Source: Zoogloea sp.
GTDB lineage: Bacteria > Pseudomonadota > Gammaproteobacteria > Burkholderiales > Rhodocyclaceae
DNA: 64,000 bases
Strand: one strand, 5' to 3'
Assembly (NCBI RefSeq): GCF_041916735.1
Contig: NZ_JAYRYY010000017.1
The notes below the pieces were generated by a model. That model searched no databases. It saw only the letters and a list, made by a program, of their open reading frames with translations, and was not told the DNA's origin. Positions 3,277-34,211 of this stretch are shown here, piece after piece. Every line of letters starts with the position of its first letter. The first letter of the stretch is position 1. The position numbers were made by a program, and so were the translations under genes.

Positions 3277-4230
3277 TCACGCTACCCGGTTGCGCGCCTC
3301 CCCGGCGGCGAAGGCTTCGATGTTGCCGATCAACTGGTCCGCCAGGGCCTGCATGGCCTCCCGGCTGGACCAGGCCACGTGGGGGGTGAGGATGAAGTTG
3401 CCCGCGTCCAGTAAATCGTGAGCGAGAAGGGGATTGTCCCGGGGTGGCTCCTCGCTCAGCACGTCGAAGCCGGCGCCGCCGATCTGCCTGTGGCGCAGGG
3501 CCTCGGCGAGGGCTGCTTCATCCACCAGACCACCGCGGGCGGTGTTGATGAGCAGGGCGCCGGGCTTCATGGCGGTGAGCTCTGCCGCACCGATCATGTG
3601 CCGGGTGGCGTCGTTGAGGGGGCAGTGCAGGCTGATTACGTCGGCTTCGCGGAGTAGCTGCGGGAAGGCCACGTAGCCTTCGCGCACCGTGTCGGCGCCC
3701 TTGCGCTCGCCGCGGATCACCCGCATGCCGAAGGCCTCGGCGAGGCGGGCGACGCCGTCGCCCAGGGTGCCGCTGCCGAGAATGCCCAGGGTCTGGCCGG
3801 CCAGGTCGCGGATGGGGTAATCGAAATAGCAGAACTGCTCGCTTCGCTGCCAGCGCCCGGCCGCCACCGAGCGGTGGAAGGGGCCGATCTGCCGGGACAG
3901 GGCCAGCAGCAGGGCAAAGACGTGCTCCGGCACGGTCTCGCGGGCGTAGCCGCGCACGTTGGAGACGACAATGTCGCGGGCCCGGCAGGCCTCCAGATCG
4001 ATGTTGTTGTAGCCGGTGGCGGCAATCGCCACCATCTTCAGTCGTGGCACGCCGGCCAGGATGTCGGCGGTCAGCAGGCGCTTGTTGACGACGGCAATGG
4101 TGGCGTCGGCCAGACGGGCCGCCACGTCTTCCTGGCGGGTGGCGTCGAATTCAATCCACTCGTGGGCAAAGGCCGGGCGCCGGACCTGGGCGATCAGGGC
4201 GCCGGCTTCAAGATTGACGATGCGGTGCAT
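3277..4230 (-). CDS. hprA: D-2-hydroxyacid dehydrogenase (glycerate dehydrogenase/hydroxypyruvate reductase-like)
   Basis: ATGYNNID, G.LG.G.LG Rossmann motif, DVISLHCPL, LINTARGGLVDE, DVL..EPP, LTPHVAW. Confidence 0.85.
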   Translation of the reverse strand: MHRIVNLEAGALIAQVRRPAFAHEWIEFDATRQEDVAARLADATIAVVNKRLLTADILAGVPRLKMVAIAATGYNNIDLEACRARDIVVSNVRGYARETVPEHVFALLLALSRQIGPFHRSVAAGRWQRSEQFCYFDYPIRDLAGQTLGILGSGTLGDGVARLAEAFGMRVIRGERKGADTVREGYVAFPQLLREADVISLHCPLNDATRHMIGAAELTAMKPGALLINTARGGLVDEAALAEALRHRQIGGAGFDVLSEEPPRDNPLLAHDLLDAGNFILTPHVAWSSREAMQALADQLIGNIEAFAAGEARNRVA

Positions 4231-31283: not shown

Positions 31284-32192
31284 TCAGATCACCGCGTCCC
31301 TCACCTCGCCACCCAGCGCCTCCAGCAGCGCAGGGATCAGACGTGACAGTTCTCCGCTCATCAGGGCGAAATCGGCTTCCATCTGCATATCGGCGGCGTC
31401 GGCCTGGCGTTCGGCTTCTTCCTTGATCACATCGAGGAAGGCCACGCGCTTGATCTCCATTTTTTCGGTGAGGATGATCGAGATACGGTCGTCGAAGGTC
31501 ATCGCGAGGCGGGTCGGCAGCTTGCCGGCGGCCAGGTGGTCCTGCACGTCCTTGCCGTCGAGGGCGTGACGCACGTAGCGCACGGCAGCCTTCTCGTCGG
31601 TCACGGCACGCAGCTCGCAGTCCAGGTCGATGGTGAAGTTGCCGCAGGCCTGGTTGGCCGCCAGCCAGTCAGTCATCACCGACACCGGCGAGAGCTGGGT
31701 CTTGACCATCTTCACCGGCAGTTCGTCGAGGGTGTCGCGCAGGGCGTCCAGCACTTCCTCGGCACGGGCCGGGCTGGCCGCGTCGATCACCAGCCAGCCG
31801 CCTTTTGGGTCGATCCAGGCATACACCTTGCGGCGGCGGGTGAAGGCCCGGGGCAGCAGCTCCTGTAGCACCGCCTCCTTGATTTCCTTCATCTGCTTGC
31901 GGCCGGGCTTGAAGCCCTGCTGGGCCTCGATCTGCTCGGCCTTGTCGGCCGCCACCTCATTGACCACCGATGAGGGCAGCAGCTTCTGCTCGACCATCAG
32001 GGCGATCAGGAAGTGCCCGCCCACGGCCAGCACGAAACGGTCGTCCTTGGTTGGCGAACTCCAGCCCCGGCTCGCCATGTCCTGGCTGCCACAGGGCGCA
32101 AAGGGGCGGGCGGCGAGCTTTTCGTTGAGGGTTTCGACGGTCAGGCCCCAGTTTTCGGGGAGACGGTAAATCTGGAGATTGCGGAACCACAT
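31284..32192 (-). CDS. rdgC: Recombination-associated protein RdgC
   Basis: MWFRNLQIYRL, GW..P, EQK.LP.SVV, LLPRAF, TRLA.T..D..S..L, ADF.LM.GEL. Confidence 0.96.
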   Translation of the reverse strand: MWFRNLQIYRLPENWGLTVETLNEKLAARPFAPCGSQDMASRGWSSPTKDDRFVLAVGGHFLIALMVEQKLLPSSVVNEVAADKAEQIEAQQGFKPGRKQMKEIKEAVLQELLPRAFTRRRKVYAWIDPKGGWLVIDAASPARAEEVLDALRDTLDELPVKMVKTQLSPVSVMTDWLAANQACGNFTIDLDCELRAVTDEKAAVRYVRHALDGKDVQDHLAAGKLPTRLAMTFDDRISIILTEKMEIKRVAFLDVIKEEAERQADAADMQMEADFALMSGELSRLIPALLEALGGEVRDAVI

Positions 32193-32282
32193 GGCGGGAA
32201 ACGATCCGTGCTGATGGAAAGGAGGCGGCATTGTAGCGGCTCATCGCGGTACTGCCAGACCGTTCGGCGGATCATCCGGCGG

Positions 32283-32312
32283 TTGACACTCTGCAATTCA
32301 GAGTTATATGCT
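32283..32312 (+). promoter_or_regulatory. Putative sigma70 promoter
   Basis: TTGACA (32283-88), 18 nt, TATGCT (32307-12), upstream of ATG 32351. Confidence 0.65.
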
Positions 32313-32326
32313 CTGAATCACAGAGT
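32288..32326. promoter_or_regulatory. Tandem palindromic operators (A/G)CTCTG-N5-CAGAGT overlapping the promoter
   Basis: ACTCTG-caatt-CAGAGT (32288-32304) and GCTCTG-aatca-CAGAGT (32310-32326), 22 bp apart. Confidence 0.72.
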
Positions 32327-32350
32327 AAATTCAAGTGGAATTTCCCGATC

Positions 32351-33406
32351 ATGGCCGACCCCATATCCCGCCAGCTCGACAACATCCAGTCCATGCTCGT
32401 CCGTGGTCAGCGCAACCTGCGCATGGAGCGTCACAGCCTTGTGCTGTGGGGTCTTGGTGGGGCCGGGCTGTTCCTCTCCAGCGACCTGGTCTTTACTGCC
32501 GAGCAGATCCCGGATACCACCCAGCGGGCCCTGGTCTGGCTGGTCTTCATTGCCCTGGTGCTGGGCGGCGCAGGTTATGCGGACTGGCATCTGACCCGGC
32601 GCGTCAAGGCGGCCCGGGACGAAACCTGGTCATTCATCCACCGTCAGGTGGTCAAGCTGATGTGGCTGCTGATGGGCATCGGCGCATTGTTCACCTTCGC
32701 CACCTTCTTCTTCGGCGGGGCCTACATGCTGTGCACCGTGTGGCTGGTGCTGATCGGCCTGGCGCTATACGTGCATGGGCTGTTCTCGGAGGAAGTGCTG
32801 GAATGGGCCGGCGGCATCATCATCGCCATCGGTGTGGCCGGGCTGGCCGCCAGGCTGCCTTTCGAGACGATGAAATGGATCGCTGCCTCGGTGTTCGGGC
32901 TCGGCCTGCCGATGCTGTCCGGCCTGCTTGACCATGGTCGGGAGCGTCCCTTCGCCCTGCGTCTGGCCCAGGCCGCGGGCTGGACGGTGCTGGTGCTGGC
33001 CGCGCCCCTGGCCGGTCACCGCTACGCCTCCGCCCAGCTGCCCCCCGAGGTGCCGGTCACGCCGCTCGATACCTACCGGTCCGGCGCCGATTTGAGCGGG
33101 CTGCGCATTGTCGGCCTGCCCGCCGGCACCCGCGTGCCGGTGCGGGTCGAGGTGTCCGGTGATCTGTTCCGTCCGGCGGCCGATGCCATCCTGCCCCTGA
33201 CCCTCGACCAGCCCCTGGAGATCCTGGTGCGCGACGGTCAGCCCACCGGCGATGTACGCGCCCCGGGGGGGCCCTGGCGGCTGGCCCGGGAAACCCACTG
33301 GATCTCGATCCCGTGGATGCGCGCCAGCCTCGACCCCACCCATGGGCCGCAGGTCGAATCCGCGCTGGAGGTGAACTTCCAGGGTGGAAACGCCCGTCGT
33401 CACTAA
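32351..33406 (+). CDS. Uncharacterised polytopic membrane protein with a C-terminal soluble domain
   Basis: About 7-8 hydrophobic segments followed by a hydrophilic beta-rich C-terminal domain of ~120 aa. Confidence 0.8.
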   Translation: MADPISRQLDNIQSMLVRGQRNLRMERHSLVLWGLGGAGLFLSSDLVFTAEQIPDTTQRALVWLVFIALVLGGAGYADWHLTRRVKAARDETWSFIHRQVVKLMWLLMGIGALFTFATFFFGGAYMLCTVWLVLIGLALYVHGLFSEEVLEWAGGIIIAIGVAGLAARLPFETMKWIAASVFGLGLPMLSGLLDHGRERPFALRLAQAAGWTVLVLAAPLAGHRYASAQLPPEVPVTPLDTYRSGADLSGLRIVGLPAGTRVPVRVEVSGDLFRPAADAILPLTLDQPLEILVRDGQPTGDVRAPGGPWRLARETHWISIPWMRASLDPTHGPQVESALEVNFQGGNARRH

Positions 33407-33445
33407 CGCGGCCCCCCTTTTCCCAAGTCAAGAAGGAGTTCCACC

Positions 33446-33844
33446 ATGTTCCTGCGTTTCTCCGCCGGTGTGCTTGCCGCCCTCGCCCTCACCGCTTGCG
33501 CCAATCTAGGCAAGCCTGGTGCCGACGAGCTGGCACGGCTGCCCGTCGTCCGTTTCGGCGAAGCAGCGCCCGCCGGCCAGCCCTTCATCCTGCACTATCC
33601 GGCCGGTGCTCCCATGCCGGTGGAGGCGCGCATCCACGGCAGCCTGCTCGATGGCGAAGCCCGCAGCACCCTCACCGTGCGCACCCGTCAGGATGTCTAT
33701 ACCTACAAGCAGTGGGCCAGCCTGGACGGCAAAAACTGGAAGCCCGGCAATGAAGTGATCGGCGGAAACTTCGAAATCCGCGTGCCCGGCGAACAGGATG
33801 GGCGCAATCCGGGCTCGATGCGGGCAGAATTCAACCTGAAATAA
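33446..33844 (+). CDS. Uncharacterised lipoprotein
   Basis: Lipobox LALTAC; AAGGAG RBS. Confidence 0.8.
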   Translation: MFLRFSAGVLAALALTACANLGKPGADELARLPVVRFGEAAPAGQPFILHYPAGAPMPVEARIHGSLLDGEARSTLTVRTRQDVYTYKQWASLDGKNWKPGNEVIGGNFEIRVPGEQDGRNPGSMRAEFNLK

Positions 33845-33881
33845 GCAGACGGAAAGGCCCGCCCAGTGCGGGCCAACGCCC

Positions 33882-34211
33882 ATGGAACCCCTCGACGCCC
33901 TTCTCCACCAGCCCCTGCGCACCCAGCTTGCCGCTTTTCTCGCGGGGGCTGGCGAGGCCAGTTTTTCCGAACTCAAGCGAGGCCTGGAAGTGTCGGACGG
34001 CAATCTTGAGTCCCACCTCAAGAAGCTGATCGCCGCCGATTACGTGTCGCTGCGCCGCAGCGACGGCCCTGGCCGAAGCCAGACCAGCTACAGCCTGACC
34101 CCCACCGGGCTGGACGCCCTGCATCGCTACGTGAAGGCGCTCCAGAAGCTGCTGCCCATGGGTGACAGCCCTCCCCTGCCGGGCGGCCTGGCCCGGGACA
34201 GGGGGGGCTGA
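33882..34211 (+). CDS. Winged-helix transcriptional regulator (ArsR/MarR-like HTH_34 type)
   Basis: LLHQP.RTQL.A.L....ASFSELK..L.VSDGNL.SHLKKL..A.YV ... T.Y.LT..G..AL..Y. Confidence 0.88.
   Translation: MEPLDALLHQPLRTQLAAFLAGAGEASFSELKRGLEVSDGNLESHLKKLIAADYVSLRRSDGPGRSQTSYSLTPTGLDALHRYVKALQKLLPMGDSPPLPGGLARDRGG

Follow-up and report, generated by a model that had tools for sequence, protein, structure and literature searches.

Which protein controls a three-gene operon that carries two palindromes over its own promoter, and to what would that protein respond? We asked this of positions 32283-34211 of the window, a 64,000-nucleotide stretch of contig NZ_JAYRYY010000017.1 (assembly GCF_041916735.1) from Zoogloea sp., in which a first-pass annotation had described a sigma-70 promoter overlapped by two CTCTG-N5-CAGAG palindromes and followed by genes for a polytopic membrane protein, a lipoprotein and a winged helix-turn-helix (wHTH) regulator. 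The promoter and palindromes were borne out by reading the sequence, by shuffling and by a promoter scan, and the gene content by seven predicted transmembrane (TM) helices, a lipobox and a Pfam HTH_34 domain in the respective products. From a comparison of related loci we consider it likely that the HTH_34 protein represses its own operon from the two palindromes, hereafter operators O1 and O2. The promoter, operators and genes are arranged as follows:

32283-32288, plus strand: -35 hexamer TTGACA, from the sequence read and the promoter scan
32288-32304, plus strand: operator O1, A-CTCTG-CAATT-CAGAG-T, with the exact palindrome CTCTGCAATTCAGAG at 32289-32303
32304-32310, plus strand: AT-rich spacer of 7 nucleotides (nt) between the palindromes, TTATATG
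32305-32312, plus strand: -10 region, either TATGCT at 32307-32312 (spacing of 18 base pairs, bp) or TATATG at 32305-32310 (16-bp spacing)
32310-32326, plus strand: operator O2, G-CTCTG-AATCA-CAGAG-T, with the exact palindrome CTCTGAATCACAGAG at 32311-32325
32351-33406, plus strand: membrane-protein gene, 351 residues, start codon at 32351
33446-33844, plus strand: lipoprotein gene, 132 residues, lipobox LTAC
33882-34211, plus strand: regulator gene, 109 residues, the last gene of the operon, Pfam HTH_34

Twin operators overlap the promoter of the operon

O1 directly abuts TTGACA and fills the spacer between the -35 and -10 elements, and O2 covers the expected transcription start, a placement typical of a repressor. 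The -10 region lies in and beside the 7-nt spacer that separates the palindromes. The two palindromes start 22 bp apart and, with their flanks, read ACTCTG-N5-CAGAGT (O1) and GCTCTG-N5-CAGAGT (O2). The promoter scan called TTGACA-18-TATGCT, which matches at 10 of 12 positions, against an expected 0.2 promoter-like sites for the region; TATATG, at 16-bp spacing, is the alternative -10. Exact CTCTG-N5-CAGAG occurs twice in the window against 0.07 expected, a number reached in none of 100 shuffles, and these two palindromes are the sole exact copies in the whole 4.6-Mb genome. A chance origin is excluded by the shuffles, the whole-genome count and conservation.

The operators are conserved while their spacers drift

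To follow the site across species, we assembled 81 loci, consisting of the window and 80 others from a scan that took one genome per species. The 80 belong to Zoogloea, Gallionella, Sideroxydans, Ferriphaselus (Gallionellaceae), Sulfuricella, Dechloromonas, Azonexus, Rivihabitans and the alphaproteobacterium Azospirillum. Of the 81 loci, 74 keep the twin site, and these span two proteobacterial classes; all 74 sequences are distinct and 62 are perfect. The seven loci without it comprise two that lack upstream DNA and five that have other genes upstream, for which the 3-kb flank examined was possibly too short. Where extra genes precede the membrane-protein gene, the twin site is found 0.2-2.6 kb further upstream, ahead of those genes. 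When the upstream regions of 19 Zoogloea species were aligned, GTTGAC and all four half-sites were invariant, while the N5 spacers, the region 5' of the -35 and the leader all varied. The expectation that the palindromes would be conserved upstream of orthologous operons was thus upheld, with half-sites fixed while spacers drift.

The family consensus is GTTGACA-CTCTG-nATTn-CAGAG-TnATAAA-CTCTG-CAAAA-CAGAG-TTAA. Among 67 distinct promoters, T, G, A and C of the -35 (logo positions 7 and 9-11) are invariant and its other two positions are kept in 63-66; between the palindromes the consensus reads TnATAAA and then CT, and 64-66 promoters keep T31, A32 and T36. The half-sites are nearly invariant over the 74 loci, 12 of which are imperfect and carry 14 changes in all. 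Every one of these changes is one-sided and none is compensatory, as expected for a protein site and not for an RNA stem. Eleven of the 14 fall in O2 and three in O1, a skew that fits a predicted division of labour with O1 as the strong primary site and O2 as an auxiliary one.

The N5 is fixed in every locus. Between the palindromes, 67 loci have a gap of 7 nt, Azospirillum has one of 8-9 nt, and a distant clade considered below has gaps of 17 and 23 nt. Because N5 is constant and the gap is variable, the dimer unit is CTCTG-N5-CAGAG, in agreement with the recognition unit first proposed. We also considered the inner pair, CAGAG-N7-CTCTG, as the dimer unit and ruled it out, since the inner distance varies (7, 8, 9, 17 and 23 nt). 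The accompanying claim that the palindromes stand exactly two helical turns (22 bp) apart holds for 67 of the 74 loci and fails in Azospirillum, at 23-24 bp, and in the distant clade, at 32 and 38 bp centre to centre.

The N5 spacers of O1 and O2 (32294-32298 and 32316-32320 in the window) tend to be mutual reverse complements, such as TTTTG and CAAAA. The match is exact in 19 of the 74 loci (for example L049, L052, L063 and L072) and averages 3.05 of 5 positions, compared with 2.44 +/- 0.10 when partners are shuffled. With complementary spacers, the 37-bp operator is often one large dyad centred on the -10. A-tract bending, tetramer symmetry and shared ancestry are possible origins of this complementarity.

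One metagenome-assembled genome, of Candidatus Dechloromonas phosphorivorans, has a second copy of the cassette (L099) in addition to L065. In L099 the membrane-protein gene has an apparent frameshift, with the C-terminal domain in another frame (3731-4018), and both O2 (CCCAG) and the -35 (CTCGACA) are degenerate. Either this copy is a paralogue in decay or the long-read assembly is in error here.

A distant clade keeps the same operator

Three of the family's most distant full-length members were traced to contigs (L110, L111 and L112). Their membrane proteins are 22-24% identical to that of the window and their regulators 45-48%; the regulator gene overlaps or abuts the membrane-protein gene, and a lipoprotein gene is present in none of the three. 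Two of these loci carry ACTCTG-N5-CAGAGT twice upstream, and in L112 the first copy abuts a TTGACC -35. The third contig is truncated and has one operator copy with one mismatch. The same sites and the same recognition-helix motif, DGNLxSHxKKL, occur in both clades, so the code was fixed while the membrane protein diverged.

The operator occurs once per genome and travels with one regulator

In 11 genomes the twin site occurs exactly once per genome, always at the operon. Neither the genome of the window nor any of the 10 other genomes scanned contains a second twin site. Single sites with one mismatch number 40 in the window genome against 67 for a reversed-pattern control, and stray single matches in the scanned genomes are likewise at control level. 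A wider regulon is ruled out by the single twin site per genome together with these control-level counts. The first-pass annotation had valued the operator as a handle on such a regulon; the scans give one target, and the regulon is the operon alone.

The regulator gene lies downstream in every one of the 81 loci with enough DNA, and of 61 related genomes its ortholog occurs in 19, precisely those that have the membrane protein. Since the site accompanies a single regulator gene from class to class and is not repeated elsewhere, the simplest reading is that it is the regulator's own operator. To judge from gene content, the conserved core is the membrane protein plus the HTH_34 regulator, and the lipoprotein can be absent.

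Operator conservation, promoter overlap, the single site per genome and strict co-occurrence all support, at the level of sequence comparison, the earlier suggestion that the operon is repressed by its own regulator. In the mechanism that we propose, the regulator would bind as dimers to two 15-bp palindromes whose half-sites lie 10 bp apart. O1 and O2, once bound, would shut the operon's own sigma-70 promoter, and the operon would be the sole target.

The regulator is a minimal winged-helix protein

The regulator matches Pfam HTH_34 (PF13601) over profile positions 1-80 of 80, with 66.6 bits against a cutoff of 27 (E 2.2e-18). It also passes, marginally, the cutoff for MarR_2 (29.7 bits, cutoff 27), over residues 14-66 only, and its structured part spans about 91 residues. 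MarR proteins typically have about 140-150 residues, with N- and C-terminal dimerisation helices that make the ligand pocket. Pfam HTH_5 (ArsR) is matched marginally above its cutoff (24.5 bits, cutoff 22); the scores for NCBIfam HTH_metalloreg (26.5 bits, cutoff 55) and PadR (PF03551; 18.9 bits, cutoff 27) fall below theirs. ArsR/SmtB metalloregulators bind metal through a Cys pair in alpha3 or at the N-terminus, or through an Asp/His/Glu set in alpha5. The window regulator has no Cys, and no such ligands are conserved in 20 orthologues. His81 is variable, and the sole invariant His are H9 in helix 1 and H45 in the recognition helix.

Residues 1-91 are 60-75% identical across families and keep the motif SDGNLxSHxKKL, and the tail is variable. 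The regulator has about 95 structured residues and no extra domain, and its conservation far exceeds that of the membrane protein. Its best sequence match among solved structures is PH1061 (PDB 1UB9; E 4.3e-5, residues 7-91).

The membrane protein and the lipoprotein

An AlphaFold (AF2) model of the membrane protein (mean confidence score, pLDDT, 74.5) starts with an N-terminal helix, continues with seven long ones and ends in a beta domain at about residues 230-345. Hydropathy and charge place 14 lysine and arginine residues on the loops assigned as 'in' and 1 on the short 'out' loops. The resulting topology, N-in and C-out, predicts that the beta domain is periplasmic. The protein belongs to no Pfam or NCBIfam family: at E<=0.1 it gave only the sub-threshold Pfam models DUF2964 and DUF973 and no NCBIfam match, and a Foldseek search of its fold against the PDB returned nothing below E 1e-3. 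The family is rare, with 183 representative clusters among 1.84 billion proteins in a profile search.

Twenty-four residues are invariant across both clades, and 19 of them lie on cytoplasmic loops or inner helix halves. These cytoplasmic-side invariants include I12, M15, L16, G19, H28, L32, W33 and G34 and, further along, D78, L81, T82, K86, Q99, G143, F145, S146 and W152. A catalytic metal site at H97, H142, E147 and E151 was considered and ruled out; the distant clade does not keep these His and Glu residues of the main clade, and an enzymatic centre is for that reason unlikely. The distant-clade proteins (L110, L111 and L112) end in a conserved Cys-x-Cys (CDC or CGC) that is missing from the Zoogloea-type clade.

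The lipoprotein has the lipobox LTAC, with Cys18 invariant in its family, and its AF2 model is all-beta (pLDDT 83.7). It too matched no Pfam or NCBIfam family, and Foldseek against the PDB gave nothing below E 1e-3. When the two families were aligned with hhalign, the lipoprotein matched the C-terminal domain of the membrane protein over 106 columns with 97.3% probability (E 2.4e-11); pairwise BLASTP of the same two reached E 0.005 only. This profile comparison makes the lipoprotein a paralogue of the domain that the membrane protein extends into the periplasm. It is missing in seven loci, where the regulator gene directly follows the membrane-protein gene, and in the distant clade, and in two more loci other genes take its place. 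It has no Asp at +2, and by the Escherichia coli sorting rule a lipoprotein without Asp at +2 goes to the outer membrane. By analogy, the lipoprotein is probably anchored in the outer membrane.

DsbD_N was matched weakly by 9 of 20 lipoproteins, with a best E of 3.5e-4. A 2047-residue protein with Calx-beta and FG-GAP repeats (P0368) has eight matches to profile columns 255-301, which lie in the periplasmic domain of the membrane protein and correspond to the strand motif LPAGxxxPVxVxVSGD. Weak hints of this kind suggest that the periplasmic domain could be an immunoglobulin-like sandwich distantly linked to the Calx-beta type. In one Gallionellaceae locus (L098:3001-3968), the membrane protein seems to comprise nothing beyond the TM domain (query residues 1-238), and the end of its gene is overlapped by that of the regulator. 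Like the lipoprotein, the periplasmic domain may be dispensable.

The cassette is a discrete unit with accessory genes

The operon is flanked by two genes and contains one further feature:

31284-32231, minus strand: rdgC, the divergent neighbour; the operator region is the intergenic region between rdgC and the membrane-protein gene
downstream of the regulator gene, convergent: bluB (TIGR02476)
33849-33867, plus strand: GC-rich hairpin GGCCCGC-CCAGT-GCGGGCC between the lipoprotein and regulator genes

With rdgC divergent on one side and bluB convergent on the other, the three genes form a closed unit. Membrane protein, lipoprotein and regulator is the usual gene order in the 81 loci. The membrane-protein gene is found in 19 Zoogloea species, in the slot between rdgC and bluB. 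Eight sufficiently complete Zoogloea genomes lack the operon, and in them rdgC lies right next to bluB, 18-528 bp away (L102-L109). This adjacency indicates that the promoter, the operators and the three genes are inserted or lost as one discrete unit of about 2 kb, and such an indel unit, deduced from gene order, would fit the patchy distribution that includes Azospirillum. The relatives with the cassette are freshwater and wastewater bacteria. The empty gaps between rdgC and bluB hold nothing, inverted repeats resembling repetitive extragenic palindromes (GGGGCGAATTCATTCGCCC; L103 and L104) or another small membrane open reading frame (L105 and L106).

The hairpin has a 7-bp stem without a T-run 3' of it, and the terminator scan lists it for the minus strand only. 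It is not conserved beyond close relatives; many relatives have just 6-15 bp at this place. It could lower expression of the regulator relative to the structural genes.

Several loci carry accessory genes behind the same operator (L039:710-2975, L048:1135-2919, L074:497-2278, L069:965-2947, L112:4336-6318, L089:4019-4852 and L053:1609-2319). They encode a GNAT acetyltransferase, an S26 signal peptidase and three lipoproteins: one of the PF00144 beta-lactamase/penicillin-binding-protein (PBP) type with 593 residues, an S9 peptidase of 660 residues that occurs in both clades, and an alpha/beta-hydrolase. Relatives also have a ChrR-type cupin and single-pass proteins of no known kind under the operator. 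The recruited genes are mostly periplasmic or lipoprotein hydrolases, and in Gallionellaceae the operator also drives the PF00144 serine hydrolase. To judge from their annotation, the accessory genes hint at an envelope role, perhaps the breakdown of a peptide-like or ester-like compound. PADLOC gave no defence-system match for the cassette; it reported only a generic wHTH likeness between the regulator and Csa3, and nothing for the envelope proteins.

Signal input and alternative explanations

If the operon is autorepressed, what would lift the repression? We propose that an envelope or periplasmic cue would be sensed by the beta domain of the membrane protein, with or without the lipoprotein. 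The triggered membrane protein would then capture the repressor on its conserved cytoplasmic face, and capture would derepress the operon, giving more membrane protein together with any hydrolases that the cassette carries. This scheme, in which the membrane protein is the signal input and sequesters the repressor in the manner of SdpI and SdpR, is drawn by analogy and we hold it as possible but doubtful. We are led to it because the regulator has no conserved Cys, conserved metal ligands or extra domain, because 19 of the 24 invariant residues of the membrane protein sit on the cytoplasmic side, and because the pair of membrane protein and regulator persists where the lipoprotein is missing. 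Taken further, the 7-TM protein would found a new Gram-negative family of one-step trans-envelope sensors, in which the immunoglobulin-like beta domain, by itself or with the paralogous lipoprotein, detects an envelope-acting compound or envelope damage, the cytoplasmic face captures the repressor, the cassette is switched on along with any periplasmic serine hydrolases it has recruited, and SdpI/SdpR-like logic has evolved independently on a new fold. We regard this extended form as rather unlikely.

Several points weigh against autorepression with sequestration as we have drawn it. Since the palindromes stand 22, 23, 24, 32 or 38 bp apart in different loci, binding need not involve a rigid tetramer on one face of the DNA. 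The membrane protein is not an SdpI homologue, since it matches no Pfam model at threshold, SdpI included. Small MarR- and ArsR-type proteins can bind ligands at the dimer interface, which bears on the input step. In metatranscriptome contigs from two runs, the operon has less depth than rdgC and bluB, a weak measure of expression in that assembled contigs cannot define a start site and may include DNA. Finally, literature searches found no paper on an HTH_34/PF13601 regulator and nothing relevant on the half-site words.

For the input step, direct ligand binding is the chief alternative. Autorepression would be the same, but the regulator itself would sense a small cytoplasmic or membrane-permeant ligand in the style of MarR or PadR, and the envelope proteins would be induced effectors, for example for immunity, transport or scaffolding. 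The membrane protein would then be an effector and not a sensor. We think this quite possible, if short of probable. Many small wHTH repressors let go of DNA on direct ligand binding, MarR_2 and HTH_5 both score above their Pfam thresholds, and the hydrolases (PF00144, S9 and alpha/beta) and GNAT protein behind the operator resemble a detoxifying output. On the other hand, the regulator offers only its roughly 95 structured residues, lacking the Cys, metal ligands and extra domain already mentioned, and is the far more conserved of the two partners; nor would a membrane protein that serves only as output obviously need a conserved cytoplasmic face.

The remaining alternatives concern repression itself. 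MerR-type activators bind within the -35/-10 spacer, which is where O1 sits, and the regulator might accordingly activate, or both activate and repress, from the same sites, for example by MerR-like distortion of the spacer. This is highly unlikely, as a promoter with a perfect TTGACA and a 16-18-bp spacer needs no activator, the regulator is ArsR/MarR-like and not MerR-like, O2 covers the expected start, and the contig depth of the operon, weak measure as it is, lies below that of both neighbours. It is more unlikely still that the palindromes are bound by another, genome-wide regulator or by none, with the operon's regulator acting elsewhere. Site and regulator are paired by linkage only, yet the twin site occurs once in each of 11 genomes and always at the operon, site and regulator gene travel together over two classes and into a clade whose membrane proteins are 22-24% identical to that of the window, and the regulator ortholog is found only in the 19 of 61 relatives that have the operon. 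The idea that the palindromes are hairpins of a 5' leader RNA, each folding as a 5-bp stem with a 5-nt loop, or a chance feature, has a negligible probability, given 14 one-sided and no compensatory changes in 74 distinct sequences, an O1 upstream of the -10 and so not expected in a transcript from the operon promoter, and, for chance, the shuffles and conservation.

Implications

As far as our literature searches found, this would be the first clearly defined operator for a minimal wHTH regulator of the HTH_34 type, as judged from sequence. It is written in a code of 5-bp half-sites, CTCTG-N5-CAGAG, that stayed constant while the membrane protein fell to 22% identity. One promoter, one regulator and one membrane protein make up a compact system that is portable from class to class and is insulated by having a single site in each genome; it should for these reasons be easy to reconstitute in E. 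coli. It might serve as an orthogonal repressor/operator pair and as a way into a membrane-protein family that has no Pfam family or PDB fold match. The recurrent serine hydrolases (beta-lactamase/PBP-type, S9, alpha/beta and S26) hint that bacteria in wastewater and in iron-rich freshwater use the cassette as an inducible defence of the envelope. The logic of autorepression is textbook, and the value of the system lies in an uncharted effector or sensor family and not in a new principle.

Relation to known systems

PH1061 of Pyrococcus horikoshii shares with the regulator an architecture of about 100 residues that consists of a winged helix only. Similarity is low, and PH1061 is deposited as a hypothetical protein, for which our search gave no operator, partner or function. 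RcsF and IgaA, where an outer-membrane lipoprotein signals to a polytopic inner-membrane protein, offer an analogy only, in that the cassette likewise combines a lipoprotein, here without Asp at +2, with an inner-membrane protein that has a periplasmic domain. Pfam and NCBIfam scans gave no sequence relationship to them, the cassette lipoprotein is dispensable in many loci, and the cassette would act through a one-component repressor instead of a phosphorelay.

The BlaI/BlaR1 and MecI/MecR1 systems consist of a wHTH repressor, two dyad operators and a membrane sensor-protease. The cassette resembles them in having two palindromic operators over the promoter of an operon for a repressor and a polytopic membrane protein, an extracytoplasmic domain in that membrane protein and, in Gallionellaceae, a beta-lactamase-type hydrolase (PF00144) driven by the operator. 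It differs in lacking any BlaI-type or M56 match (Pfam and NCBIfam, E<=0.1) and any HExxH motif. Compared with BlaR1, its membrane protein is also without a PBP-like sensor domain, and the His and Glu residues of the main clade are lost in the distant one.

The closest parallel in logic is SdpR/SdpI of Bacillus subtilis, in which an ArsR-family autorepressor is captured by the polytopic membrane immunity and signal protein SdpI (PMC2910880). The cassette departs from it in several respects: its membrane protein combines 7 TM helices with a beta domain in the periplasm, its genes run in the opposite order and end with the regulator, it occurs in Gram-negative hosts, a lipoprotein paralogue is present and there is no toxin gene nearby. 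Both systems nevertheless place a small autorepressor of the ArsR-clan wHTH type, in our case a predicted one, in one operon with a polytopic membrane protein, and in both the regulon is the operon. In both, moreover, the regulator has no obvious sensor domain, and the conserved cytoplasmic face of the cassette membrane protein could capture it. What is already known is the logic of autorepression; what is new is the family of membrane proteins and lipoproteins attached to it and an operator that is unusually well defined and portable.

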